Positions 18,286 through 49,728 of a DNA stretch of 64,000 nt are shown piece after piece. The notes under the pieces were generated by a model. It was given only the letters and a program-made list of their open reading frames with translations, searched no databases and was not told the DNA's origin. The stretch is from Candidatus Parcubacteria bacterium (GTDB lineage: Bacteria > Patescibacteriota > Patescibacteriia > Patescibacteriales > UBA12075), in the NCBI GenBank assembly GCA_002869165.1, contig PKTK01000001.1, forward strand, positions 29,006 to 93,005. The letters are read 5' to 3'. The position numbers and the translations under genes were made by a program. Within the stretch, counting starts at the first letter, position 1. The number at the start of each line of letters is the position of its first letter.

Positions 18286-19719
18286 ATGACAACCGTAGCG
18301 TTGACAGAAAAACCATCAATTTATCATCGAGAAGAAGCTTCGGTTGTAATTTTCCCGACACAACCGTATTGGTTTTCAGCAACACAGGAAATTGAACAAA
18401 TTCTTGATGCGTTTAGTCTTAATAAGTCAGAGGAGATTATAAGCAAAATATCGGAAACATTTTGTATAAAGCAGGAAGAGGCAAAGGAAACCTATTTATC
18501 AATTGAAGAATTGTTATATTCTTCGGGAGTTTTAATTAAAAATGGACAAATATTAAAACCTCACGAGTTTTCTCCAGATTTTCAGGTTAATGATGTTGAA
18601 AATGTTATGGTTATAGCAACAACTCAAGAGTGTAACTTGTCTTGTCCGATGTGTTATGCGATGGCAAGTAAGAAAATGTTCAATGAGATGAACACACAAG
18701 AAATCAAAAGCATTGTCGATCAACTTGTTCGCATGCCTTGGGAAAATCGTATTTCTCGTGTCGCCCTGACTGGAGGCGAATTGTTTATGCGCCCCGATGC
18801 GATTGAATTAATTGAATATGTTCATCAGCAAGGTTTTTTTGTTCAAGTCAATACTAACGCTACTACATTGTCCACTAAACAAATCAAGAGATTATCTGCG
18901 CTTCCACAATTAAAAATGTAAGTTTCTTTAGACGGTTGTCAGGCTACTTCTCACGAGTTTATTAGGGGATCTGGTACATTTGGCATAACTATTGATACCA
19001 TTCGTTCGCTTTGCGAACAAGGAGTTTCGGTTGCTATTAACATGTTTGTTCATGCTGGTAATTTGAATGAGATTAAAGAAACTTTGCTACTCGCCGACAA
19101 TCTTGGCGTATCTGGGTTTAATTGTTTGAACATGATGAATGTTGGTCGAGGCAATAGTAAAAAAACAAAAGAAACTCTTGTCGGAGTTTCATTAAAAGAT
19201 TTTTATCGCACAGTTTTTGAAGCGATACGTTATGATGTTCAGTTGCAAAAGTTGATGATCAATTCAACATTTGCAAATCAAATAATGTGCATTGCAGGCG
19301 GAGTAAAGAGTCACAGTTGCGGTATCGGTACAAATCGGGCAGTATACGTAAAAGCTGATGGTACACTTTATCCATGTGCTGACACATCTTTGCCAGCATT
19401 TTGTTTGGGAAATTTGCGAGAAGATAAATTACTTGATATTTGGGATAATTCTACGTTGCTAAAAAATTTGCGGTCTTTGAATATTGATAATTTGAATTCC
19501 AGATGTTCTGCATGTGATGTCCGATATCAGTGTGCAGGCAATTGTCGAGGGGAGAATTACCAAACAACTGGTGATATCCAAAGCCCGCATTTTAAGTGTG
19601 AAGAGATTCATGACTCCATTCTTGAATTAATGTGGATTCTAACGGAGGAACCAGATATTTTTAAGATAAAAGTTGATGAGCTTTATGACAAAGTCAGTAC
19701 TCATGCTTCAATGGCTTAA
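18286..19719 (+). CDS. Radical SAM/SPASM peptide-maturase-like enzyme with N-terminal PqqD/RRE-like domain, interrupted by an in-frame TAA at 18919-18921
   Basis: CNLSCPMCY (CX3CX2C) motif. After the stop the frame continues as VSLDGCQATSHEFIRGSGTF. C-terminal SPASM cysteines CGIGTNRAVYVKADGTLYPC and CSACDVRYQCAGNC. ORFs 18286..18921 and 19042..19719 share one frame. Confidence 0.8.
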
Positions 19720-20802: not shown

Positions 20803-22518
20803 TTAAAATATACCCTTCGTTAATACTTGAGGGAGTGGGAGTTCCCTCCCTTCGATTCCTACCGCCCGTGCACTTAAGGATTTAGCTTTGATTAAATCCG
20901 AAGAAACCTCGAAAGGTAGTGACAATTTAGGGGTTCCATTAACTATTTCTTGATAGGTTGGCATACCATCGAAAACGAACTCGAAAAGGGTTCGTTTTTC
21001 GTTTACATTTTCGCTATCTTTAAGCATTTCTCCTGGGTGTTCCATTATATTTTTGGCGTATTTTATAAAAGCTCTAATGTCATCTTCTGATATTTCTACT
21101 TTTGTTCTTTGTTTTGTAGCATTTTTAATTTGAAATTCAATTTTTTCAATTTTTTCTTCAAGCATAATTTTTGCTGTGTCACTTTTTGTTGTTAGTAGTG
21201 TGTCCAGTGCTTGAGCTTGCTCAATTTTTAGTTGCGAAACATTATTACTAATTTGTGCGGAATATAATGTTATCTCTTTTTGTCTTTTTCGGTATTTCAA
21301 AATTAGCTCTTCTTCAAGTAGTTTTAGAAATTTGGGACGGAATTTAATACTATAAATATATTTTTCGATATTACTTTCAAAGTCTTTTTTGCTATATCCA
21401 TGATATTCGTGATTTCTTGAGCAGTGGTATGTTGGAAATCTACGACCAGTTTTACCTTTGGGGGAGCTAGCCAAGAAAGGTTTATTACATTTTTCACATA
21501 ATACAAATTTGTAGGGAAAGAGTGGGTTATGTTTGCTTCTTTTCAATCTGATTTTATTTGATTGTTGATTATATAAAATTTCAAACTCATTTTCCGCAGT
21601 TTCTTTAATCAAAACCTTTCCTCTGTTAGCTTTGTTGAAAGTTTCGATACTAATCAATCCATCGAATTTTGCTCTGACAGGTTTGTTTGCCATTTTATGC
21701 GAAATGATTCCACAATATATTGGTCTTTGAACTATGGATTGAAGTTGTTTTATGGTTAACAATTTACCACCTCTTTTACCAATAGGTTTATCTTGTGCCT
21801 TGTTCCATTTAATTCTTTCTATACTCTTAAACCCTAAAGCATTTATTTTATCAACTATCTTTTGGTCTTCATAGTTTCCACTTGCTCTCATTTCAAACAT
21901 TTTTATGTAGAATTGCGCTCTTTCAGTATTTTGCACAAGAATACTTTTTTTCTTACCACCGAAGCGCATTTTTTTAATAATAAACCCATCAGGGTTATGG
22001 CCAATATGGAAACCCTCTCGAACCAGCTCAATTTCACGCCCAATTGTTCTAGTTAAAATATCTCTTACTTCTTGTTTTTTATTTTCTGCCATTACTACCT
22101 CAGTTGTGTCGCTTGAAGAATACCTGCTCCAGTCATATTCGACACCTAAATGTTCAAGGGCATTTCTTTGAGGTTGAATAATACCCATACTGTCAATCAG
22201 TTCGACTTTATATTCTCTTAACTCCTTTTTGATTTGTTCATATTTTCCAGTGCCCGCCCTTGTTATTCTGCCAATTTCTCTAACTATTAGGTAATCTACT
22301 TTACCAGAGTTTTGTTTTAAGAATTTCATTATCTCTCCATCAAAAATTTGTCTATATCCTTTTCTTCCAGAGAAAGGTTCTTTGTATACTTTAATTATTT
22401 CCCAGTCGTTGTTTTCAGCTATGTTTCGGCAAATATTTTCTTGAGCATCAAGGCTCTCTCCTTGTTGTGATTGGGTTGGAGTTGAAACCCTGCAATAGAT
22501 GATGCATTTTTTTGACAT
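20803..22518 (-). CDS. Large serine recombinase (integrase)
   Basis: N-terminal resolvase domain IIYCRVSTPTQ..GESLDAQ, a recombinase domain, a Zn ribbon CEKCNKPF...YHC, and a coiled-coil C-terminus. Confidence 0.9.
   Translation of the reverse strand: MSKKCIIYCRVSTPTQSQQGESLDAQENICRNIAENNDWEIIKVYKEPFSGRKGYRQIFDGEIMKFLKQNSGKVDYLIVREIGRITRAGTGKYEQIKKELREYKVELIDSMGIIQPQRNALEHLGVEYDWSRYSSSDTTEVVMAENKKQEVRDILTRTIGREIELVREGFHIGHNPDGFIIKKMRFGGKKKSILVQNTERAQFYIKMFEMRASGNYEDQKIVDKINALGFKSIERIKWNKAQDKPIGKRGGKLLTIKQLQSIVQRPIYCGIISHKMANKPVRAKFDGLISIETFNKANRGKVLIKETAENEFEILYNQQSNKIRLKRSKHNPLFPYKFVLCEKCNKPFLASSPKGKTGRRFPTYHCSRNHEYHGYSKKDFESNIEKYIYSIKFRPKFLKLLEEELILKYRKRQKEITLYSAQISNNVSQLKIEQAQALDTLLTTKSDTAKIMLEEKIEKIEFQIKNATKQRTKVEISEDDIRAFIKYAKNIMEHPGEMLKDSENVNEKRTLFEFVFDGMPTYQEIVNGTPKLSLPFEVSSDLIKAKSLSARAVGIEGRELPLPQVLTKGIF
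20851..20872 (+). repeat. Diverged copy (20/22) of the tRNA-Trp 3' end, lying inside the recombinase gene 3' end
   Basis: ttcgaTtcctaCcgcccgtgca versus ttcgaatcctagcgcccgtgca. A further degenerate copy ends in cccgtgcaaa at 20681-20690. Confidence 0.7.
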
Positions 22519-27447: not shown

Positions 27448-30111
27448 ATGAAAGATACATTATCTCGAAAAATTTATGCTCAAAAAATAGCCGATGAAAT
27501 AGTTGAAAAATATAATTCGGAAAAGAAAGCATGTGAATATGATGGATTAAATAAAACTTTACGCTATAAAAAGTGTAGAGACAATATGATTTTTGCAATT
27601 TCTGGAAAGTGGGGGGAGGGAAAGACAAGGTTATTGAATTTGATTGAAAAGCCTTTAAATGAGCAAGGTTTTAAAGTAATTTGGTTTAATCCCTGGAAAT
27701 ATTCGCAACAGGACATTACTTTAAAAAGGGCTTTTTTAAGTAAAATAAAGAAACGTCTGGATAAAAGTGTTGATTTGTCTGATTTGTATTACGACCGTAC
27801 CAAAACGACAATTAATCTAAAAAACATAGATTGGAAATTTATATTTTATTCAGTAGTTTTTGTTGTTTTATTATTGTCATTACTTCTAGTTTGTCTGATA
27901 TGGATTGGTATGCCAATGTTGAATTATACCGATGTAATTAGTTCTTTTTTTGGAAACAAAGTTTTTAATAGCCTTGTGTATGCATTACTTTTTACTATCT
28001 TTGTTCCAATATTGATGCAGATAATTGTGCAAAATAGAAGTAGCGCAAGCATTAGTACTGCAGAAGAGTTTGAAGATATATTTAATAAATTAATTAAAGG
28101 TGAAGAAAAGATAGTTTTTTTTATCGACGATTTAGATAGATGTAGTTCGAAAACATTAAAATTAATACTTGATTCAATAAAAACATTTTTTCTCCATGAC
28201 GAATGTTCCTATATTATTACAGGGGACCATACAGTAATTGAAAAATATGCGGCAAATGAGTTACAGTTAGACGAAGATTTATCTCCGCAGAAAAAAACAC
28301 AAGAAGGAAGGAGATTTCTGAAAAAATTATTTGACATATATTGGAGAATGCCACTTCCCACACCAGCGCAGTTTAATGTTTTTATTGATGAAGAACTTAA
28401 GACGGCAGGAATTGATTGGAGCGATGCCCAAAAGAATAATTTTAAAATATTTTTAACTGATGACAATTTATTTGAACGTAATCCGAGACATGTTAAACGA
28501 TTTATTACTAAAGTTCGATTTGCTATTGAGGGTGCAAAATTAATGTTAAAAGAAATTGACCAAATAAATAATCAAGACCCTAGCATGAAGGAGAAGGTGA
28601 GCTCGTATCAAGAAATTATTTCCCATCCAGACCTATTAGCAAAGATTTTATTAATTGAGGAGTTTTTTTATCCGATATATGAAAAATTAATTTTACATCC
28701 CGAAAACTTGATACACCACGAAAAATTAATTCGTAGATGTAATTCTATTAGTGATTTCAAAATTAACAATCAGAATTTATTTAGCATTTTAAATGGCGAT
28801 AGTATTACTTCTGACCAGCAAATAAAATTAACAATTGAATTAGAAACTTATCTTAATGTCTTAAAAAGACATCCAAAATTTACAGATGAATATAATTCAA
28901 CAATATTCGAGGTTGGTAACTTTTTGTCAATTTCAGGTTCTACTGGTTTACCAAGTTCAATTGGTCCTGATGAAACAGACTTTCTCGCATTCTTAAAGAA
29001 GGGTATGGCTTTTGAGAAGTTGGGTAAATTAGTCGAAGTTGCCAAGGAAGGAAAAAAAGAAGATTTTGTTCAGAAAGCGCTAGTTTGCTTCGAGTCAAGC
29101 GAGGACGAAACAGTACGATATAATATTCTTTTAGATGTCATGGCGTTTAGTGCTAGTCATGAAGAATGGATTGCGCGCCTTGATGAATGGTGGAGTAAAA
29201 TCAAGCTTTTATCTGAAGAAAAAAAAGGCGAAATAGTCAGTTTGTTTTTTAAAATATTATTGATAAAAAATCCAACAGGGTTAAAAAAAATAACTGAAGA
29301 AATGCCAGCCTACAAAGATAAAATTTTGGAAATGTTTAATTCTAATAATTTTGTAAATTCGTTGTCAAAAGAAGCTCATAAAGTGATAAAAGAATATTTA
29401 TTAGAATCAATACAAACAGATGAGCCAAGTGACTACATATTAGCGCTGAATAAATATTTTAATCTCCACGAGGATGATGATTTGCAAAAAGCGCTTGGTG
29501 AAGCGCAAGATGATTCTTCCTGGTGCATTAAGCTATTAAAAGCATTAAATGAAAAAAAAATTGACAACGGTCGGATGTATAAGCAGATAATTAAAAATAC
29601 AAAACCATTTTTAGAAGAATTTGAAAATCTTCAATGGGTAATAGAAAATAAAGAACTATTTAAAAACAATGGTCTGCTAATTTACGCAAACGAAAAAATT
29701 ACAAATCAAACTCAACAAAACAATGAGCTATTGGAGTTAGCTCAAAAACAAGAGGAATTGGAAATGGCTGACAGTATAAAAATGAATATAAAAAATAAAA
29801 TCATTGGTAAGCTTGGTAGTGTTGATAATTTTAATGATTTTAATACAGAATTTATTAAAAATTTACTATCAAAAAATAGTAGAATCGACCTTTTAAAGAA
29901 TTATTTAATTTACTATACAGATAATAAAAAAACTACCGAACAAAGAAAGGCAATGCATGAATATTTAAATAAAAATAATAATTTATGGTTAGATATTGAC
30001 ATAACATTAATCAGGCCAGATTTAAATAAATTTAAAAAAGCAAATTTACAAAGAAATCACGAATTAATTCAAGCAAGAAAAGATGTTTTACAGTCATGGG
30101 GATTAAGTTGA
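27448..30111 (+). CDS. KAP-family P-loop NTPase (887 aa)
   Basis: Walker A GKWGEGKT, two TM helices inserted in the NTPase domain, and Walker B IVFFIDDLDRC. Confidence 0.8.
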   Translation: MKDTLSRKIYAQKIADEIVEKYNSEKKACEYDGLNKTLRYKKCRDNMIFAISGKWGEGKTRLLNLIEKPLNEQGFKVIWFNPWKYSQQDITLKRAFLSKIKKRLDKSVDLSDLYYDRTKTTINLKNIDWKFIFYSVVFVVLLLSLLLVCLIWIGMPMLNYTDVISSFFGNKVFNSLVYALLFTIFVPILMQIIVQNRSSASISTAEEFEDIFNKLIKGEEKIVFFIDDLDRCSSKTLKLILDSIKTFFLHDECSYIITGDHTVIEKYAANELQLDEDLSPQKKTQEGRRFLKKLFDIYWRMPLPTPAQFNVFIDEELKTAGIDWSDAQKNNFKIFLTDDNLFERNPRHVKRFITKVRFAIEGAKLMLKEIDQINNQDPSMKEKVSSYQEIISHPDLLAKILLIEEFFYPIYEKLILHPENLIHHEKLIRRCNSISDFKINNQNLFSILNGDSITSDQQIKLTIELETYLNVLKRHPKFTDEYNSTIFEVGNFLSISGSTGLPSSIGPDETDFLAFLKKGMAFEKLGKLVEVAKEGKKEDFVQKALVCFESSEDETVRYNILLDVMAFSASHEEWIARLDEWWSKIKLLSEEKKGEIVSLFFKILLIKNPTGLKKITEEMPAYKDKILEMFNSNNFVNSLSKEAHKVIKEYLLESIQTDEPSDYILALNKYFNLHEDDDLQKALGEAQDDSSWCIKLLKALNEKKIDNGRMYKQIIKNTKPFLEEFENLQWVIENKELFKNNGLLIYANEKITNQTQQNNELLELAQKQEELEMADSIKMNIKNKIIGKLGSVDNFNDFNTEFIKNLLSKNSRIDLLKNYLIYYTDNKKTTEQRKAMHEYLNKNNNLWLDIDITLIRPDLNKFKKANLQRNHELIQARKDVLQSWGLS

Positions 30112-30156
30112 TTAGTGCACTATTAAAAGAAAAGTTATAATTTTTAAAATATATTT

Positions 30157-30669
30157 ATGATTTTTATACCAGGTTGGTTAATCTCAATATTTACTTTTCC
30201 AGGTGTGATTATTCATGAATGGTCACATAAGAAATTTTGTGACTGGACTGGAGTCAAGGTTAACAAGGTGGTTTATTTTCGTTTTGGTAATCCTGCAGGG
30301 TATGTGCTTCATGATAAACCAACAACTTATAAACAGACATTTTATATTTCAGCTGGACCTTTGTTTTTAAATTCGGTTTTAACATTGATTTTTGGTTACT
30401 TAGCTAGTCAAACATACATTGATAGTGGTTTATATTTTATTTTTTTGTGGATAGCTATATCGGCTGGTATGCACGCATTTCCGAGTGACCATGATGGTAA
30501 GAATATTGTAACAGAGAGCAAAAACTCTTTGAAAGAAGGCGGTACTTTTATACATTATTTAGCATATCCATTTTATTGGATTCTTTGGATAGCTAATAAA
30601 TTAAGATTTTTCTGGTTTGATTTAGTTTACGCTATTATGTTGGTTTATGCAGTAGGTGGCTTGCAATAA
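30157..30669 (+). CDS. Membrane protein with an HExxH motif (DUF3267-like putative zincin)
   Basis: IIHEWSHKKF followed by several TM helices. Confidence 0.45.
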   Translation: MIFIPGWLISIFTFPGVIIHEWSHKKFCDWTGVKVNKVVYFRFGNPAGYVLHDKPTTYKQTFYISAGPLFLNSVLTLIFGYLASQTYIDSGLYFIFLWIAISAGMHAFPSDHDGKNIVTESKNSLKEGGTFIHYLAYPFYWILWIANKLRFFWFDLVYAIMLVYAVGGLQ

Positions 30670-30682
30670 TATTTTATTTTTT

Positions 30683-31405
30683 ATGTCTAGAAGAAAAGGC
30701 AAAGAATTAGAAGATTTACTAAGTGGACTGGGAGGCCTAGCCTTCCTTGGCTTGTTTGGTTTATGGTTCACAAATCGTAGTAAGTTTTATATTTACATAT
30801 CCGTGATTGTTGTGGTAATTATTATTGCTATTGTTGTAATAATTAAAATCAAGAAGCATAGGTTTGATAATATTGGTAGTTGGCACTCAGGCAAGGGGTT
30901 AATAAAGGAGCTACAATCAATGCACCCGAATGACTTTGAAGAGTATATCGCTGATTTATACAGAAGACTTGGCTACACCACTGAAGTAGTGGGAGGTTCA
31001 CATGATGGTGGAATCGATGTCATTGTCACCAAGGACGGAATTAAACATTATATTCAGTGTAAGAAATATATTTCTTCAAAGGTAGGAGTGAGTGAGGTCA
31101 GAGATTTCTATGGAGCTATGGCAGGGAAGTTGTCGAGTGGAAAAGGTATTTTTATAACTACCAACATATTTACAACAGAGGCAGAACAATTTGCCAGTGA
31201 TAAGCCAATTGAGTTGATTGATGGAGATAGGCTATTAAGACTGATTAAGCAAACCAAGAAAGATAAAGAAGAAATAGTTGTTAAAGATGATGATAAGTGT
31301 CTAAAGTGTGGCGGTAACTTGATTGAGAAGAGTGGTAAGTATGGAAAGTTTTTGGGATGTTCAAACTACCCTAAGTGCAGGTTTACTAAAAACATTAGTA
31401 TTTAG
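30683..31405 (+). CDS. Membrane-anchored Mrr-type restriction endonuclease domain protein with a C-terminal topoisomerase-type zinc ribbon
   Basis: FEEYIADLYRRLGY...HDGGIDVIV...IQCKKY (Mrr_cat-like) and CLKCGGNL...GCSNYPKCRF. Start taken at MSRRKGK. Confidence 0.75.
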   Translation: MSRRKGKELEDLLSGLGGLAFLGLFGLWFTNRSKFYIYISVIVVVIIIAIVVIIKIKKHRFDNIGSWHSGKGLIKELQSMHPNDFEEYIADLYRRLGYTTEVVGGSHDGGIDVIVTKDGIKHYIQCKKYISSKVGVSEVRDFYGAMAGKLSSGKGIFITTNIFTTEAEQFASDKPIELIDGDRLLRLIKQTKKDKEEIVVKDDDKCLKCGGNLIEKSGKYGKFLGCSNYPKCRFTKNISI

Positions 31406-31426
31406 AAATATTTTATATAAATAAAC

Positions 31427-31930
31427 ATGAGTGATAAAATAAAAATAATCAAATGCCGTGATGTACACGGCAAAGAGAGCGAATTGCCAATAAGCAAATT
31501 TAAGTTTCGCCCCTCTGTCTATGGGGTGTTGATTGAGGGTGATAAAATTCTTCTATCACGTCAATGGGATGGTTATGATTTTCCTGGAGGTGGGATTGAG
31601 ATTGACGAGACTATTGAAGAGGCTCTCAAGAGAGAGTTTGTGGAAGAAACCGGCATTCAAGTTGAGCCAATAATGCCTATCCACACAGAGACAGATTTTT
31701 TTAATCCCGATTATACCGATAAGTACAAAGGACAATATTGGAATTGTATAATGATTTATTATCTGGTGAAAAAAGTCGGCGGTGAACTGACAAAAGATAA
31801 TTTGTGTGATACTGAGCAAGAGTATGCTGATATGCCCGAGTGGATTGATATTAGTAAAATAGAGAAACTAAAATTTTTTAATTCAGTTGATAGTGCAGCT
31901 GTTATTAAAAAGGCAAGCAGTTTATTATAA
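31427..31930 (+). CDS. Nudix hydrolase
   Basis: Nudix box GGGIEIDETIEEALKREFVEETGI. Confidence 0.85.
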   Translation: MSDKIKIIKCRDVHGKESELPISKFKFRPSVYGVLIEGDKILLSRQWDGYDFPGGGIEIDETIEEALKREFVEETGIQVEPIMPIHTETDFFNPDYTDKYKGQYWNCIMIYYLVKKVGGELTKDNLCDTEQEYADMPEWIDISKIEKLKFFNSVDSAAVIKKASSLL

Positions 31931-31952
31931 AAAATAGAGAACAAGAATACAT

Positions 31953-31980
31953 AAATACGGTTTTTTGCCGTATTTATTTT
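31953..31980 (+). terminator. Intrinsic terminator
   Basis: aaatacgg / ccgtattt stem with a T-rich tail. Confidence 0.65.
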
Positions 31981-31991
31981 ATTTTATAAAT

Positions 31992-32020
31992 TTGACTTTT
32001 ATCAATTATCATGTTATATT
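31992..32020 (+). promoter_or_regulatory. Promoter of the kinase-dehydrogenase-aminotransferase-Nudix operon
   Basis: TTGACT, 17-nt spacer, TATATT, about 70 nt upstream of 32089. Confidence 0.5.
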
Positions 32021-32088: not shown

Positions 32089-32748
32089 ATGAGTGGATTA
32101 TTGATAGTATTTGAAGGGCAGGATGGGGCAGGGAAATCCACTCTTTTAACTCTGACTGCTGAGCAGTTGAGTAAAGATGGATATCCCGTAGTTCTGGTGC
32201 CAGAGTTTTCTTCGAATGTATTGGGAGAATACTTTAAGAAAATTTTGGAAGAAAATAAATTCTTGCGACTTAATACTTTAGACCCGAGTGCATTCACGGA
32301 AACAATGTATGTAATATCTGATTTGTACTCTCAGGATGAGTTAGAAATTCAACCTGCCATAAAAAGCGGAAAAATCGTTTTGAAAGAAAGGCACATCGAT
32401 TCTATTTTGGCTTGCCAGATACCGAAAATCATGGATGATTATTCGGGGGAAAAAGAAGATTTGCTTTTGCCTTGGCTTAACAGCGTTGCAAAGTATTTAA
32501 CTGGGCCAAGTCTGAGAATCTTTTTAGAGGTTGAAAAAGATTTGCTCCAAGAAAGAATTATTGAGCGAGGCGAATCAGTCTCTAAGAAAGACTTAATTGT
32601 TTTTGATAGACGTCAAGAGATTTATAACCAATTATTGAAAAAAGATAATAATTGGTTGCGATTGCCAAATAACAGTGATGTAAAATCGGCTATATCTTTA
32701 GTGGTTAAAGCAATTAAAAAACAATACGACATTTTGTCGGACAGATAA
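32089..32748 (+). CDS. Thymidylate-kinase-family nucleotide kinase
   Basis: IVFEGQDGAGKST P-loop, an ERH (DRY-like) motif, TMK-like length. RBS ggagg upstream. Confidence 0.75.
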   Translation: MSGLLIVFEGQDGAGKSTLLTLTAEQLSKDGYPVVLVPEFSSNVLGEYFKKILEENKFLRLNTLDPSAFTETMYVISDLYSQDELEIQPAIKSGKIVLKERHIDSILACQIPKIMDDYSGEKEDLLLPWLNSVAKYLTGPSLRIFLEVEKDLLQERIIERGESVSKKDLIVFDRRQEIYNQLLKKDNNWLRLPNNSDVKSAISLVVKAIKKQYDILSDR

Positions 32749-32758
32749 GGAGGCTATC

Positions 32759-33778
32759 ATGAAACTAAGAACTGTTATAATCGGATTAGGAAAGCAAATA
32801 GTTGAAGACCATTTGCCCGCGGCAGTAGAGAGTGAAAACTATGAAGTATTGGCAGTATGCGATACAAACCCTGAAAGAGTCAATGCTTGTTGCGAAAAAT
32901 TTCATCTCGAAGGTTTTTCGGATATTGATTCCATGCTTCAAAAGATTAAATGTGATGTTGCTATCGTTGCGGTCCCTCATAATCAGTATCTTCCTGTAAT
33001 TACTAAATTAACTGAAAAAGGAATTCACGTAATTAAAGAAAAGCCTTTTTCAACTTGTCGTGAAGAAGCCCTTATGATTCATCGGTTAGTTTCTGAAAAA
33101 AAACTTTTTCTTGGGGTAACTCTTCAAAGAAGATTCAATCCAATTTTCCAAGCCTTTCATCAGCTCAAAAAAAGGATTGGAAAAATTTATTCGATTGAAG
33201 GTTCTTATGTTATGAACATTGCTCATCTTGATGAGGGTTGGAGAGCATCAAAAGATTTCGCTGGTGGTGGCGTTTTGATTGACATGGGATATCACTTCGT
33301 AGATTTGCTGGTTTGGTATATGGGCCTACCAACAAGTGTAACCGCCCGACTTTCCAGAGGAAATCGTATTGGGCAGAAATATGATGTTGAGGATACAGTC
33401 AATTTACTTTTTGATTACTCGACGGGTAATCATGACGAAAAGGTAGTTGGGAATTTTATTATTTCCAGAGTGTATCCGCAAAAATCCGAAAAACTCACAG
33501 TCCTGGGTTCAAAAGGTATTATCGCAATCGAAAGAGGGAAAATCCAAAGACTAGATGCCAATGGAAATGAAATTGAGACTTTGGAAAGGAAAGGTGGATG
33601 GCCTTCAGCAGCTATTGACCAACTGGACTATTTTGCTGATATTATCAAAAGTAGACAGTTTGCTGGAGTTTATGATTATCGTGAACATTTCAAACACATT
33701 GCGATAATTGATGCTGCCTATGAATCTGACAAGAAGTCCATTTCTTGCAACCCGAGTGATTTTTTAATCACAGAATAA
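32759..33778 (+). CDS. Gfo/Idh/MocA-family NAD(P)-dependent oxidoreductase
   Basis: N-terminal Rossmann VIIGLGKQ, an EKP motif (VIKEKPF), and a C-terminal alpha/beta domain. RBS aaggagg upstream. Confidence 0.85.
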   Translation: MKLRTVIIGLGKQIVEDHLPAAVESENYEVLAVCDTNPERVNACCEKFHLEGFSDIDSMLQKIKCDVAIVAVPHNQYLPVITKLTEKGIHVIKEKPFSTCREEALMIHRLVSEKKLFLGVTLQRRFNPIFQAFHQLKKRIGKIYSIEGSYVMNIAHLDEGWRASKDFAGGGVLIDMGYHFVDLLVWYMGLPTSVTARLSRGNRIGQKYDVEDTVNLLFDYSTGNHDEKVVGNFIISRVYPQKSEKLTVLGSKGIIAIERGKIQRLDANGNEIETLERKGGWPSAAIDQLDYFADIIKSRQFAGVYDYREHFKHIAIIDAAYESDKKSISCNPSDFLITE

Positions 33779-33798
33779 TTCCGACTAGGAGATACATC

Positions 33799-35058
33799 AT
33801 GAAATATAAACTTGCATTATTTGGTGGTCAAAAAACAATTTTGCCAGAAAAGGCAAGATTTAATTGGCCAGTTATTACTGACGAGGTTGAGGCTGTGGTT
33901 ATGAAACAGCTTCATGAAAGTGTTTCAATCTATAATCGTTCTGGGATATTTGAAGAATTTGAAAACAATTTCGCCGATTACCATGGCAGAAAAAAGGGAT
34001 TGCTTTTCAATTCGGGAACCAGCGCGATTTATTCAATGTTCGAGGGTATTGGGCTCGGACCAGGTGATGAGGTTATTTGTCCTACATATACTTTATTTGC
34101 AACAGTCAGTCCTATGATGATGACTGGTGCGAGGCCAGTATTTTGTGATTGTCGGGAAGATGGAAATATCAATCCTGACGAAATAGTTAAAAAAATTACA
34201 GCGAAAACAAAAGCTGTGATTGTCACTCATATGTGGGGCATTCCTTGCCAAATGGATGTCATTAGTGAAATATGTTCACAGCATAAGCTTGCCTTGCTTG
34301 AGGACTGTTCGCATGCGCATGGTGCATCATATCAGGGCAGGAAAGTTGGTACATTCGGTAGTGCTGCCGCGTGGAGTTTGCAAGGTCAAAAAATAATCTC
34401 TGGTGGTGAAGGCGGTATTATGTTAACTGATACAGACAGCATATATAATCGTGCTTTGCTTCTTGGTCATTACAACAAGAGATGTAAACAGGAGATTCCG
34501 GAGAGTTTTCAGCTCTCTGGTTTTTCTCAGACTGGTTTTGGACAGAAGTTCAGAGCGCACCCTTTGGCTATTGCTATGGCAAATCAACAATTTTCACATC
34601 TTGATGAATGGGTTTGCCAGAAGTCACAATTTGCTAAACAGTATATTGCGGAACTTGGGAGTTGCAGATTTTTAACAATGCCACAATTTCATGATTCTCA
34701 GCCGAGTTGGTATGCCTTTGTTATGCAGTATAATGAGGCCAGCGCAAATGGAGTAAAAATCGAAAAGTTTGTCGAGGCTTTGCAAGCTGAGGGTTTAAGT
34801 GAAGTGGATATGCCAGGTTCGACTTGTCCTATCCATAATCTTCCGCTTTTCGTAGCTCCTGAGCAGGTATTTCCAAGGTTGTACGAGAATAAGCAGACCA
34901 ACATCTCTGACTTCCCGATTGCTGAAAAATTTTATAATTTGGCAATCAAGATACCTGTCTGGGCATTTCCGCAAGACGCCGAAGTGGTAGTTGCATATAT
35001 CAAGGGTTTTCAAAAAGTGATAAGCGTTGTTGAAAATGAACCAAAGACGCTTACTTAA
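33799..35058 (+). CDS. DegT/DnrJ/EryC1/StrS-family PLP-dependent aminotransferase
   Basis: LLEDCSHAHGA...AWSLQGQKIISGGEGG (catalytic Lys region). Confidence 0.85.
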   Translation: MKYKLALFGGQKTILPEKARFNWPVITDEVEAVVMKQLHESVSIYNRSGIFEEFENNFADYHGRKKGLLFNSGTSAIYSMFEGIGLGPGDEVICPTYTLFATVSPMMMTGARPVFCDCREDGNINPDEIVKKITAKTKAVIVTHMWGIPCQMDVISEICSQHKLALLEDCSHAHGASYQGRKVGTFGSAAAWSLQGQKIISGGEGGIMLTDTDSIYNRALLLGHYNKRCKQEIPESFQLSGFSQTGFGQKFRAHPLAIAMANQQFSHLDEWVCQKSQFAKQYIAELGSCRFLTMPQFHDSQPSWYAFVMQYNEASANGVKIEKFVEALQAEGLSEVDMPGSTCPIHNLPLFVAPEQVFPRLYENKQTNISDFPIAEKFYNLAIKIPVWAFPQDAEVVVAYIKGFQKVISVVENEPKTLT

Positions 35059-35126
35059 TCAGGGCATAGGTTTACTTCTCCGAAAAATGATGATATATTG
35101 AGTCCAAGATAAATAAGGAGATAAAT

Positions 35127-35588
35127 ATGCCAAATAAAATAAAACCTGGCTTAGTCGAAGAGCTAAATAGAAAGCTGAAGGAAGATGGAATCCAAAAGGT
35201 AGTTGTGGGTGGTATTGTTTTTTCGGGAGAAAAAGAAGTGCTCTTGCTTGAAAGATTGCCAAACGAATTCAAAGATAGTCTAGTTGAACTTCCCAGTGGC
35301 ACTATTGAGACAGGGGAATCAATTGAAGATGCTTTGCATCGAGAGGTAAAAGAGGAAACTGGACTTGAAGTGTTGGATATTATTAAGTATGTCGGCTATT
35401 TTGACTACTTATCTTCGTCAGGGAAAAAAGTAAGACAGTTGAATTTTGTAATAAGTGTTAATTCTGACGATGTTAAAGTTAACCCCACTGAGCATGTGCG
35501 CTTTTTACGTGTTAATCCCAACAACCAAGAATTTCAATTACTAAACATTTCTAATGAAACAAAGGAGGTAATACTTAATTGTTTATAA
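35127..35588 (+). CDS. Nudix hydrolase (second copy, last gene of the operon)
   Basis: Nudix box GTIETGESIEDALHREVKEETGL. RBS aaggag upstream. Confidence 0.85.
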   Translation: MPNKIKPGLVEELNRKLKEDGIQKVVVGGIVFSGEKEVLLLERLPNEFKDSLVELPSGTIETGESIEDALHREVKEETGLEVLDIIKYVGYFDYLSSSGKKVRQLNFVISVNSDDVKVNPTEHVRFLRVNPNNQEFQLLNISNETKEVILNCL

Positions 35589-35610
35589 TTGACGGAGTTC
35601 CGTCGATGAA

Positions 35611-35642
35611 CCGCCTATCTGAAAAGATTAGGCGGTTTTTTA
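35611..35642 (+). terminator. Intrinsic terminator of the operon
   Basis: ccgccta / taggcgg stem followed by T7. Confidence 0.75.
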
Positions 35643-46971: not shown

Positions 46972-46997
46972 GGCCGCCTATTTTGGGCGGTTTTTTT
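46972..46997 (+). terminator. Intrinsic terminator/attenuator after leader copy 2
   Basis: ggccgcc / ggcgg(tt) stem followed by T7. The PAAR gene starts 10 nt later. Confidence 0.7.
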
Positions 46998-47006
46998 ATT
47001 AAAACT

Positions 47007-48176
47007 ATGCCAAATACACACACTACTAAGAATACAGCACACATCTTAATCATATTTCTGTTTGCCATCTTCTTGAGCGGTTGTGGTATGTTCGACTTTT
47101 TAGATGCTGAGATGAACAAGGCTATAGAGAAGAAAAATCCAAAGTTGTGCTTGAAAATGACAGAAGACCAGGCTAGAAGAGAAAGATGCTTGAGTGCAGT
47201 AGCTGAGGTCAAAGAGGACGCGAGTGTTTGTGACATGATAGAGACAGAAAACGAAAAGGATAAGTGCTTCTCGGGCATTGCGATTAAAAAAGAAGATGCA
47301 AATATTTGCGGTAGTATATCGGGAGATAATAGAAAAGGGTCATGCTACAGCCAAATTGCTAAGAGCTCACAAAACGAAGAGCTTTGCGAAAAGATCCCAG
47401 GCAAAAGTATGGTCGGGGATTGCTTCCAGAGTATCGCTGTAGAGAAAAATGATGAAAATATTTGTGCACGGATCAAGGACACATTTTCTGGTCCTCGATG
47501 TTTCGTATTGCTAGCAAAGCAAAAAGTGGATGTATCAATTTGTGACAAGATCGAAGGTCGGGACTCTCATGTGAGTGACTGTATCCAGGGAGTAGCAGAG
47601 CAGAAGAACGACGAATCACTTTGCGCGCAAATAGAGAAATCAACTTACAGCGATAGTTGCTACGCCAGCTTAGCCTCGCTAAAACAGGACGCCTCGATAT
47701 GTGCTAGTATCGAACAAGAGAGAAAAAGAAATTCTTGTTATGAAAACCTCGAAGCTAGCCCCGAGGCTCTAGCAGAAGAAGAACAGGCTGAAGAAGAGGG
47801 AGATGAAAAATACGGCATCATCGAAAAGGACGGGAAAGTGTATATAAAATCAAAACCTGGAGAGGTTCTCAGTATAAGTAGCAGTGATTTGCCAGACTGG
47901 GCAAATGCCCAAATGGTAGTGGTGGGGGCAAGTGCTGTTTGTGTTGGCCCACCAAGTACAATTAGCTCGGGAGACTCCAATGTTCTTCTCAATGGACTGC
48001 CAGTAGCGAGAAAAGGCGATGAAACTTCTCACGGAGGGAGTATAACAGAGGGTTCTGACAAAATATTTATAAACGGAGTCCCAGCCGCCTTTGTCGGCGC
48101 ACAAACAGTCTGCCCCATGGTAAGCCCAGGCCCAGTCCCGCATGTGGGTGGACCTATATCAAATAATGGTTATTAA
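47007..48176 (+). CDS. Two-Cys-repeat lipoprotein with a C-terminal PAAR-like domain (family member C)
   Basis: Lipobox FLSGC, then the same Cys repeats, then an acidic linker. The C-terminus reads VCVGPPSTISSGDSNVLLNGLPVARKGDETSHGGSITEGSDKIFINGVPAAFVGAQTVCP. The track start at 46983 lies inside the terminator. Confidence 0.75.
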   Translation: MPNTHTTKNTAHILIIFLFAIFLSGCGMFDFLDAEMNKAIEKKNPKLCLKMTEDQARRERCLSAVAEVKEDASVCDMIETENEKDKCFSGIAIKKEDANICGSISGDNRKGSCYSQIAKSSQNEELCEKIPGKSMVGDCFQSIAVEKNDENICARIKDTFSGPRCFVLLAKQKVDVSICDKIEGRDSHVSDCIQGVAEQKNDESLCAQIEKSTYSDSCYASLASLKQDASICASIEQERKRNSCYENLEASPEALAEEEQAEEEGDEKYGIIEKDGKVYIKSKPGEVLSISSSDLPDWANAQMVVVGASAVCVGPPSTISSGDSNVLLNGLPVARKGDETSHGGSITEGSDKIFINGVPAAFVGAQTVCPMVSPGPVPHVGGPISNNGY

Positions 48177-48849: not shown

Positions 48850-49728
48850 ATGAGTGCAAAAAAATACAAAGTAGCACTTTCTTTCGCTGGTGAACAAAGG
48901 GATTATGTAGAAAAGGTTGCTAATAGTTTGAAAGAAAAGGGGGTCGATTTTTTCTATGATAGGAACAATGAGATAGAAATGTGGGGAGGAAGTTTAGTGG
49001 AATACTTTGAGAAAGTATTTAAGAATGAGTCTGATTATATAGTGTTGTTTTTGTCAAAAGAGTATGCAGAAAAAGCGTGGCCAAGCTTTGAGCGTGAGGT
49101 TGCTTTGGGACGTTGGATATTTGAAAAAAGATGTATCTTTCCTGTACGATTTGACAAGACAGAAATTCCAGGTTTACCGGACACAATTTCTTATTTGAAC
49201 ATAAAAAATCTTTCACCTGAGGAGTTGGCAGATGCAATTATGACAAAGATTGGAATTAAGTATGACACTGCAAAAGAAAAAACCATGCAAACAGAAAAAT
49301 CAGTCGATTTTAGAGTGCCAAAAAAGAAAGTTAATATAAATCCATACAAGGAACGTAATAATTTTATTGCATTTGTAACAAAAGAGTTGGAGCGTAGATG
49401 TGAAGTAGTGGATGGATTAGATTTTTATAGTGAGGATGTTGGTGATAAGGTAAGCGTCAGAATATTAAGCCAAGGTGATGATTTGTACTCCATTGATATT
49501 CATAAGAATGGCTTATCGAATGATAATGGAGTATCTTTTTCATATGGTCAGGGGAGTTTACAAGCAAGCGGGTTTAATGCGCATGGAAATTTTGAATGGG
49601 ATACGGAGAAAGAGGAAGTTGTTTTGAACTACACTAATTTCAGTGTCTTTAAAAACGGAGAAGAGAAGATAACTTTTTTAGAGTATTGTGATCAGGTTTG
49701 GGACACAATAATTGAATTACTTGAGTAA
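48850..49728 (+). CDS. TIR-domain protein with an unknown ~150-aa C-terminal domain
   Basis: KVALSFAGEQRDYVEKVANSLKEKGVDFFYD...VLFLSKEYAEKAWPSFEREVA matches the bacterial TIR pattern. Confidence 0.7.
   Translation: MSAKKYKVALSFAGEQRDYVEKVANSLKEKGVDFFYDRNNEIEMWGGSLVEYFEKVFKNESDYIVLFLSKEYAEKAWPSFEREVALGRWIFEKRCIFPVRFDKTEIPGLPDTISYLNIKNLSPEELADAIMTKIGIKYDTAKEKTMQTEKSVDFRVPKKKVNINPYKERNNFIAFVTKELERRCEVVDGLDFYSEDVGDKVSVRILSQGDDLYSIDIHKNGLSNDNGVSFSYGQGSLQASGFNAHGNFEWDTEKEEVVLNYTNFSVFKNGEEKITFLEYCDQVWDTIIELLE

Follow-up and report, generated by a model that had tools for sequence, protein, structure and literature searches.

A kinase–dehydrogenase–aminotransferase–Nudix operon of a Candidatus Parcubacteria bacterium as a candidate route to an amino-deoxy ribonucleotide

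A compact operon of four genes (positions 32089–35588) was analysed in a 64 000-nucleotide stretch of DNA from a Candidatus Parcubacteria bacterium (assembly GCA_002869165.1, contig PKTK01000001.1, positions 29 006–93 005 of the forward strand), which is referred to as the window. The operon encodes a kinase of the thymidylate kinase (TMK) fold, a Gfo/Idh/MocA dehydrogenase, a DegT-family aminotransferase dependent on pyridoxal phosphate (PLP) and a Nudix hydrolase. With a probability of about two in three it makes an amino-deoxy ribonucleotide, most likely the 3'-amino-3'-deoxy compound, by the route of Pur10/Pur4/Pur7 (AdgB/AdgC/AdgD). The evidence for this consists of homology, conserved gene order, the linkage of a dedicated kinase and intact catalytic motifs. 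The resemblance to Pur10/Pur4/Pur7 had been noted in a preliminary description of the stretch, and is borne out by homology to, and a kept gene order with, adgB-C-D.

In Photorhabdus luminescens the genes adgB–E are homologues of pur10, pur4, pur7 and pur3; their expression in E. coli yields 3'-amino-3'-deoxyguanosine (ADG), the triphosphate of which (ADG-TP), once built into RNA, stops its elongation (PMC9239236). The chemistry proposed for pur10, pur4 and pur7 comprises an NAD-dependent ATP 3'-dehydrogenase, an aminotransferase and a Nudix hydrolase that yields nucleoside monophosphate (NMP) and pyrophosphate (PPi) (PMC11641026). The window proteins align, in the same gene order, with the cluster of Candidatus Pantoea carbekii (aminotransferase 40%, dehydrogenase 27% and Nudix 34% identity) and with a cassette on plasmid pSGZL of Streptomyces sp. 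769 (40, 37.5 and 41%, respectively). The Pantoea cluster is carried by a 6.3-kb plasmid that contains only repA and genes for dehydrogenase, aminotransferase, Nudix hydrolase and inositol monophosphatase (IMPase). Photorhabdus kayaii (locus L015) was recovered using the Pantoea aminotransferase as a probe, the two aminotransferases being 73% identical; here a major facilitator superfamily (MFS) gene lies upstream of the dehydrogenase, aminotransferase, Nudix and IMPase genes. The published adg primers map onto this locus with three mismatches (forward) and one mismatch (reverse), and an exact-match scan of genome contigs with the 25-nt adgB primer gave no match, the species representative differing from it by three mismatches.

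The four open reading frames (ORFs) of the operon are intact, lie on the forward strand and were all assigned by Pfam: kinase, 32089..32748; dehydrogenase, 32759..33778; aminotransferase, 33799..35058; Nudix hydrolase, 35127..35588. The intergenic gaps are 10, 20 and 68 nt, and each ATG is preceded at 6–8 nt by a Shine–Dalgarno sequence (GGAGG, AGGAGG, AGGAG and AGGAG in gene order). A sigma-70-type promoter-like site on the forward strand (31992..32020; TTGACT-17-TATATT with an extended TG, 10 of 12 consensus matches) is located immediately 3' of a hairpin and T-run (31951–31977) that ends the upstream Nudix gene. The operon closes with an intrinsic terminator on the same strand (35608..35641; −17.9 kcal/mol, z −3.8, followed by U6), the fold of which was equalled by none of 200 shuffles. 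These results agree with the preliminary description in gene coordinates, in a ribosome-binding site for every gene, in the promoter, in a terminator (placed there at 35611–35642) and in the four family assignments. The operon had also been called visibly richer in G and C than its surroundings; the difference is real but modest (0.35–0.42 against about 0.33) and is matched by other 1-kb bins of the window (0.42–0.43). Direct reading of the four translations found their catalytic motifs intact, and none of the four proteins reaches an NCBIfam equivalog cutoff.

The aminotransferase (Pfam DegT_DnrJ_EryC1, 4.7e-70) retains the motif SLQGQK..GGEGG with the PLP lysine and is identified as the counterpart of AdgC/Pur4. 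It scores 309 bits against the Adg-type enzyme of P. carbekii, whereas the best solved sugar or inosose aminotransferase gives 145 bits against the window protein and 151 bits against the Adg-type protein. Adg-type aminotransferases and dehydrogenases alike score higher against the window proteins than against solved WbpB/WbpE-type proteins, the window dehydrogenase being, however, about as near to WlbA; on these scores the nesting within the WbpB/WbpE group that had been envisaged as an alternative was not seen. A protein of identical sequence (100%) is recorded for a Candidatus Parcubacteria bacterium, and an exact search for the window aminotransferase in a contig index gave no match. An aminotransferase from Pectobacteriaceae (P0089) falls in the clade of the Patescibacteria type and, used as a query, gave no route to Photorhabdus. 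The best relative in viral contig and phage collections is only 26% identical, so there is no evidence of a phage-borne cassette.

Homologous loci were surveyed in about 100 cases (80 metagenomic, 17 from species-representative genomes, plus plasmids). Removal of loci with aminotransferases at least 90% identical left a non-redundant set of 69, in which all feature counts are lower bounds, many contigs being incomplete. A dehydrogenase gene lies upstream of the aminotransferase gene in 55 of the 69 loci and a Nudix gene directly downstream, on the same strand, in 57; either a Nudix or a CYTH gene is near it in 59. TMK-family kinases are found in 23 loci, in two different positions, GreA/GreB-family proteins in 16 and IMPases in three, all from Enterobacterales. 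The core is close to invariant, and its order dehydrogenase > aminotransferase > Nudix is kept in very different genomic settings; one cassette is situated between ndk and a ribosomal protein operon in another Patescibacteria genome, and another in a Pectobacteriaceae chromosome together with a small EamA protein. According to the source names of the homologues, the hosts are patchily distributed over Parcubacteria, Kaiserbacteria, Staskawiczbacteria, Gracilibacteria, Saccharimonadia, Woesearchaeota and Micrarchaeota, and further include a Methanomethylicaceae archaeon, Holosporaceae, Dongiaceae, Bdellovibrionales, Planctomycetales, Pectobacteriaceae and Streptomyces. The module is widespread in ultra-small bacteria of the candidate phyla radiation (CPR) and in DPANN archaea.

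A census of 148 flanking proteins contained 195 Pfam families, none of them in more than three proteins. Glycosyltransferases of the group-1/4 families account for three of the 148 (a direct screen with glycosyltransferase seeds gave two marginal matches), no acetyltransferase, flippase or polymerase recurs among these neighbours, and PADLOC matches are sparse. One PADLOC 'IetA' match was in fact an FtsH protease, and two 'pVip' matches were a PFL-activating enzyme and an anSME-like maturase, both generic radical-SAM cross-hits. Since the flanks vary, glycosyltransferases are rare and PADLOC matches are few, the cassette is self-contained: it has no link to glycan loci and no consistent one to defence islands. 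The lack of glycosyltransferase partners that had been remarked on for the operon thus extends to its homologues. Its placement in a defence-type island stands for the window itself, the context of which is island-like, but not for the family: defence- or mobile-type neighbours were seen at the window and at L097, L108 and L109, housekeeping genes at other loci.

The dehydrogenase (Pfam GFO_IDH_MocA N- and C-terminal domains, 4.6e-21 and 9.5e-20) has intact EKP and D..(.)H catalytic motifs. It scores 239 bits against the Streptomyces cassette enzyme, and the Adg-type dehydrogenase scores 96 bits against the window protein compared with at most 48 bits against the best solved dehydrogenase structure. 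The protein is proposed as the counterpart of AdgB/Pur10, a putative nucleotide 3'-dehydrogenase. In two loci a radical-SAM enzyme takes the place of the dehydrogenase (L097 5718–7013 and L098 3228–4523) and in a third (L103, 5503–7647) a radical-SAM domain is fused to the aminotransferase; the aminotransferases of these three loci are 47–53% identical to that of the window. The radical-SAM proteins match MoaA best (2e-40, nearly full length) and then viperin (9e-22), both below the cutoffs. MoaA, the GTP 3',8-cyclase, removes the H-3' atom of the GTP that it binds; the substrate of viperin is CTP. In L097 the genes upstream also include MazG and CYTH, and the vicinity encodes a DNA methylase, a YafQ-like toxin, a STAND-like ATPase and an HTH/M78 pair. 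In a metagenomic protein of 734 residues (P0106) a Gfo/Idh/MocA dehydrogenase and a cassette-type aminotransferase form one polypeptide, an arrangement consistent with channelling of an unstable keto intermediate.

The Nudix protein (Pfam NUDIX, 7.6e-17) has a complete Nudix box, GTIETGESIEDALHREVKEETGL, and shares with the Adg-type proteins an N-terminal ..DGIxKxVVGG extension; the Photorhabdus protein is 43% identical to it. From its position, its 34–43% identity, the extension and the intact box it is identified as the counterpart of AdgD/Pur7, and it would convert an amino-nucleoside triphosphate to the monophosphate and PPi. In five loci the Nudix slot is filled by a CYTH/triphosphate-tunnel protein (L070 3142–3657, L104 8187–8720, L106 8194–8739, L097 5076–5699 and L098 2517–3221), with a match of 3e-12 to NE1496 (PDB entries 2fbl and 3typ) and, for one of these members, 6e-5 to Pfam CYTH; this is a non-orthologous replacement of the presumed pyrophosphatase step. 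MazG-family pyrophosphohydrolases adjoin the cassette in L007, L097 and L108. Because CYTH occupies the Nudix slot, MazG adjoins the cassette and a MoaA/viperin-like radical-SAM enzyme replaces the dehydrogenase, the comparisons point to a nucleoside triphosphate (NTP) as the probable substrate.

The kinase (Pfam Thymidylate_kin PF02223, 3.9e-20) appears not to be a housekeeping Tmk: it scores 71.4 bits against TIGR00041 (dTMP kinase), below the cutoff of 83.25, and its thymidylate-binding positions are changed. Its AlphaFold2 model has a predicted local distance difference test (pLDDT) score of 90, and the best 50 structural neighbours in the PDB are all thymidylate kinases. The P-loop reads GQDGAGKST; no variation is seen in the P-loop, in ERH (which corresponds to DRY) or in two arginines of the LID, which answers the concern raised earlier that catalytic residues might be missing. 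The positions aligned to a Phe, an Arg and a Tyr of Staphylococcus aureus TMK, which we take to be the thymidylate-pocket residues for stacking, for base contact and near the sugar, respectively, are occupied by V, by L (with an invariant D just before it) and by an invariant C. As the catalytic motifs are invariant and the acceptor-pocket residues altered, the protein is probably an active NMP kinase with an acceptor other than thymidylate. Fifty homologues (44–99% identity) were found among 5.8e9 proteins. Five on long contigs, picked blind to gene context, were looked up and all five lie beside the dehydrogenase–aminotransferase(–Nudix) genes, and further homologues are on the same contigs as aminotransferase matches; the clade is small and dedicated to this cassette, being found essentially only with it. 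The gene is placed either upstream of the dehydrogenase gene or directly after the Nudix gene, and in other loci the post-Nudix slot is filled by a second type of TMK-family kinase.

In the proposed pathway the dehydrogenase would oxidize the 3'-OH of a nucleoside triphosphate with NAD+ to the 3'-ketone, which would be transaminated by the PLP-dependent aminotransferase to the 3'-amino-NTP. The Nudix enzyme would then strip pyrophosphate from this toxic product to leave amino-NMP and PPi, as reported for Pur7. For the kinase two functions may be considered: it could feed the pathway by phosphorylating NMP to the nucleoside diphosphate (NDP), from which NTP would be formed, as suggested for viperin-associated kinases, or it could re-phosphorylate the amino-NMP. 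The substrate class, the 3' regiochemistry, the order of the steps, the acceptor of the kinase and the biological role are what we infer from the comparisons. The product probably remains an intracellular nucleotide, as opposed to a secreted nucleoside, because cassettes of the CPR type are without the IMPase and the exporter of the Enterobacterales clusters.

Of the characterized systems, adgA–E has dehydrogenase, aminotransferase and Nudix genes in the same order (24–29, 40–42 and 34–43% identity, respectively), and both it and the window operon are compact, self-contained and without glycan genes. The Adg cluster has in addition the IMPase-type AdgE and the MFS exporter AdgA and releases a nucleoside prodrug, whereas the window operon belongs to a CPR host instead of an enterobacterium, has a dedicated TMK-fold kinase and contains neither a Pur3/AdgE-type monophosphatase nor an AdgA/Pur8-type exporter. 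No IMPase homologue was found near the cassette in the window, nor a transporter in or adjoining the operon. The clusters for puromycin (pur), A201A (ata) and cystocin (cst) have the same enzyme trio and proposed chemistry (PMC11641026). Beyond the trio they encode a phosphatase, methyltransferases and an aminoacyl-nucleoside synthetase as well as resistance and efflux functions; the window operon contains no such genes. The prokaryotic viperins with their kinase (pVip/VakA) are likewise small modules that convert an NTP to a 3'-modified chain terminator and include an NMP kinase; the window kinase matches the VakA model and variant cassettes contain viperin/MoaA-like radical-SAM enzymes. The window operon itself has no viperin-family radical-SAM enzyme and would proceed by oxidation and transamination in place of dehydration. 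PADLOC 2.0 gave no system-level match for the operon proteins and no match of any kind for the dehydrogenase and aminotransferase; there were low-score single-protein matches of the kinase to VakA (2.6e-9) and PDC-M51B (6e-9) and of the Nudix enzyme to PDC-S07 (4.5e-13). The sugar-amination pairs WbpB/WbpE (WlbA/WlbC), GnnA/GnnB, RifL/RifK and NtdC/NtdA consist of the same two families and carry out the same conversion of C–OH through C=O to C–NH2, but their loci serve glycans or antibiotic sugars and also encode glycosyltransferases, acetyltransferases or phosphatases; window-type cassettes are accompanied by Nudix, CYTH or MazG, a TMK-fold kinase and a GreA-like factor.

Several points weigh against a 3'-amino-nucleotide product. 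The tie to puromycin depends on the published statement that adgB–E are homologues of the pur genes (PMC9239236). An aminotransferase identity of 40% leaves room for a change of substrate, and the pairing of a kinase with a Nudix hydrolase in the same operon would seem futile unless the two are under regulation or have different target molecules. The amidinotransferase of four loci would also fit an aminocyclitol-type logic. The choice of 3' over 2' follows from homology and from the known H-3' abstraction by MoaA. The window dehydrogenase scores 88 bits against 3q2i, which we take to be WlbA, a UDP-GlcNAcA 3-dehydrogenase, and this is about the same as its score against Adg-type dehydrogenases (92–96 bits). 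The amino-nucleotide product of this clade is itself a prediction from sequence.

The alternative closest to this reading retains the nucleotide substrate and has another product, either a 2'-amino compound or an intermediate that is later amidinated or aminoacylated into a larger metabolite. Accessory genes do vary between loci (amidinotransferase in four; tRNA synthetases in L007, L009, L107 and four metagenomic loci), a thymidine phosphorylase occurs with glycosyltransferases in a Streptomyces biosynthetic gene cluster, and 2'-amino-2'-deoxy purine nucleosides are natural products with a pathway that also begins with a Nudix enzyme. The window operon is free of such tailoring genes, and homology, gene order and the chemistry of MoaA match a 3'-amino system; this outcome is considered unlikely. 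An improbable alternative is 3-amination of an NDP-sugar, in which the dehydrogenase and aminotransferase would act on UDP-glucose or UDP-GlcNAc(A) and the Nudix enzyme would free an amino-sugar phosphate (kanosamine-type). The solved structures closest to the window dehydrogenase are 3q2i (5e-24) and 3q2k (4e-20), the latter presumably also WlbA, its best NCBIfam match is UDP-GlcNAc 3-dehydrogenase (1.6e-22), the aminotransferase matches sugar-nucleotide aminotransferases at about 1e-40 and is labelled 'cell wall biogenesis protein' at NCBI, and Pur10 itself resembles RifL. The NCBIfam scores are, however, far below the equivalog cutoffs (80 against 450 and 179 against 423), the neighbourhoods have hardly any glycosyltransferases and no recurring acetyltransferase, flippase or polymerase, the dedicated partner is a TMK-fold NMP kinase, CYTH, MazG and MoaA-like radical-SAM proteins replace or join the cassette members, and the validated Adg cluster is the nearer relative. 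Least probable of all is a streptidine-type aminocyclitol route, with inositol oxidized (StrI-like), transaminated (StsC-like), phosphorylated and sometimes amidinated (StrB1-like): it would account for the matches of the dehydrogenase to IolG, the inositol 2-dehydrogenase (1.3e-20), and of the aminotransferase to glutamine:scyllo-inosose aminotransferases (about 1e-37 to 1e-39), for a true amidinotransferase beside kinase-bearing cassettes and for an Adg/Pur phosphatase of the IMPase family, as StrO is, but it leaves the near-universal Nudix, CYTH and MazG proteins without a role, requires an APH-type inosamine kinase where a thymidylate kinase fold is found and sits badly with a radical-SAM replacement pointing to NTP and with a nearest validated relative that makes an aminonucleoside. 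The kinase, the CYTH and MazG proteins, the radical-SAM enzymes and the dehydrogenase–aminotransferase fusion are hard to reconcile with an NDP-sugar or a cyclitol as substrate.

For the amino-deoxynucleotide reading, the chemistry and core trio are already known from puromycin, A201A, cystocin and ADG, and 3'-aminonucleotide biosynthesis had previously been tied to a few antibiotic clusters of actinomycetes and Photorhabdus. The same core is seen here as a mobile three-gene module of Patescibacteria, of DPANN archaea and of a scatter of other lineages. In a large subset of the cassettes a dedicated NMP kinase, and often a GreA-type factor, stands in place of genes to dephosphorylate and export. 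A literature search of incomplete coverage gave no description of the wide CPR/DPANN distribution of the cassette, of its dedicated TMK-fold kinase, of the form without phosphatase and exporter, of the GreA-like companion or of the CYTH, MazG and radical-SAM replacements. The distribution suggests a second, intracellular use of 3'-aminonucleotides in nucleotide-salvaging, host-attached organisms and offers new enzymes, including the radical-SAM and fused variants, for making modified nucleotides. It also leads to the predictions that the product would be formed on heterologous expression, that the kinase would be specific for 3'-amino-NMPs and that Gre factors would remove 3'-amino termini.

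The GreA/GreB-family companion is a protein of 155 residues (PF01272 3e-14, PF03449 4e-5; L046 9016–9483, reverse strand), and related genes lie by the cassette in L039, L049–51, L054, L061–63, L066, L068, L071, L080, L082, L083, L085, L087–89, L101, L104, L106, L107 (6733–7209) and L109 (9558–10115). They occur in several orientations and positions, with differing outer neighbours, and the coiled-coil tip motif AETFHDNFAYED is conserved. As 3'-amino-NTPs terminate transcripts, the factor may rescue the RNA polymerase of the producer.

As for the biological role, the data favour none of three possibilities: defence against viruses, antagonism towards hosts or competitors, or the supply of a precursor. 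3'-Amino-3'-deoxy nucleotides are potent terminators of RNA synthesis that mimic ATP and GTP. A tentative proposal, against which the odds lie, is that the kinase-bearing cassette is an intracellular chain-terminator system of CPR bacteria and DPANN archaea: a pool of 3'-amino-NMP would be held by the Nudix enzyme, the kinase would arm it against phage or host-cell RNA synthesis, and the GreA-like factor would rescue the cell's own RNA polymerase by cleaving 3'-amino-terminated transcripts. If this were true, a viperin-like immune strategy would have been built from oxidoreductase and transaminase chemistry, with a transcript-repair immunity factor included.

Further genes accompany the cassette in particular lineages. 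In four loci (L106 3345–4439; also L019, L096 and L104), one of which is a Woesearchaeota contig, the kinase-bearing cassette has a genuine amidinotransferase linked to it (SxtG 7e-59, HsvA, StrB1 3e-54), and this suggests that some lineages turn the new amine into a guanidine. Aminoacyl-tRNA synthetase genes adjoin the cassette in unrelated lineages: an extra alaS on the Streptomyces plasmid pSGZL (L009 3411–6068), an AlaRS gene in L107 (10301–12160) and synthetases in L007 (6782–9235), L063, L083, L030 and L056, of the class Ib TyrRS/TrpRS-like type. These could reflect coincidence, self-resistance or a puromycin-type aminoacylation of the 3'-amine. In one Streptomyces biosynthetic gene cluster a thymidine phosphorylase gene and glycosyltransferase genes lie beside the cassette. 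Clusters resembling adgB–E were also found in gut symbionts of stink bugs, namely Candidatus Pantoea carbekii, the Plautia stali symbionts, Candidatus Pantoea persica and Pantoea sp. Eser (L008/L010 on NZ_CP010909.1, a 6287-bp IncFII-type plasmid, and L011–L014), which hints at aminonucleoside production in a defensive symbiosis. The P. kayaii DSM 15194 cluster (L015, 5448–8321) falls short of the intact clusters of Pantoea and Cedecea by about 570 bp; it is probably inactivated, because the dehydrogenase ORF is cut to 199 residues and the aminotransferase is N-terminally shortened (342 residues).

Within the window, the neighbours named in the preliminary description (a KAP NTPase, an Mrr nuclease, a second Nudix protein, a GrpB protein and a PHP protein) were all identified as such, the Mrr-type nuclease bearing in addition a topoisomerase-type zinc ribbon. 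The suggested Pur3-like phosphatase role of the PHP protein was not upheld, since PHP recurs in none of the roughly 100 homologous loci, and GrpB, PHP, KAP and Mrr were rejected as cassette partners because, used as seeds, they gave no matches in these loci. Neither a GreA-like gene nor an amidinotransferase gene was found in the window. The second Nudix gene (31427..31930, forward strand) has its own terminator and appears to be co-transcribed with the KAP, DUF3267 and Mrr genes, the whole forming one apparent operon (27448–31930) that may be a separate defence module; the KAP NTPase has weak similarity to QatA/PifA and the DUF3267 protein is zincin-like. Membership of this Nudix gene in the cassette is uncertain. 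An orthologue of it (40% identical) comes after the cassette Nudix gene at L042, and about 17 surveyed loci have a second Nudix gene at the flank of the cassette, so that the gene is a possible accessory.

Farther upstream are a tRNA-Trp gene (17621) and, just after it, a radical-SAM core ORF (18286–18921) and a SPASM-domain ORF (19042–19719), a pair explained by a maturase gene that is split or decayed, or else by a frameshift. A large serine recombinase gene (20803–22518) follows; serine recombinases near some of the homologous cassettes are only distant relatives of it. Downstream of the operon the same variable region contains genes for a PAAR-motif protein (46983–48176) and a TIR-domain protein (48850–49728). 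With the tRNA-Trp gene, the serine recombinase, the KAP–DUF3267–Mrr–Nudix string and the GrpB, PHP-like, PAAR and TIR proteins, the surroundings have the appearance of an island that is mobile or variable.

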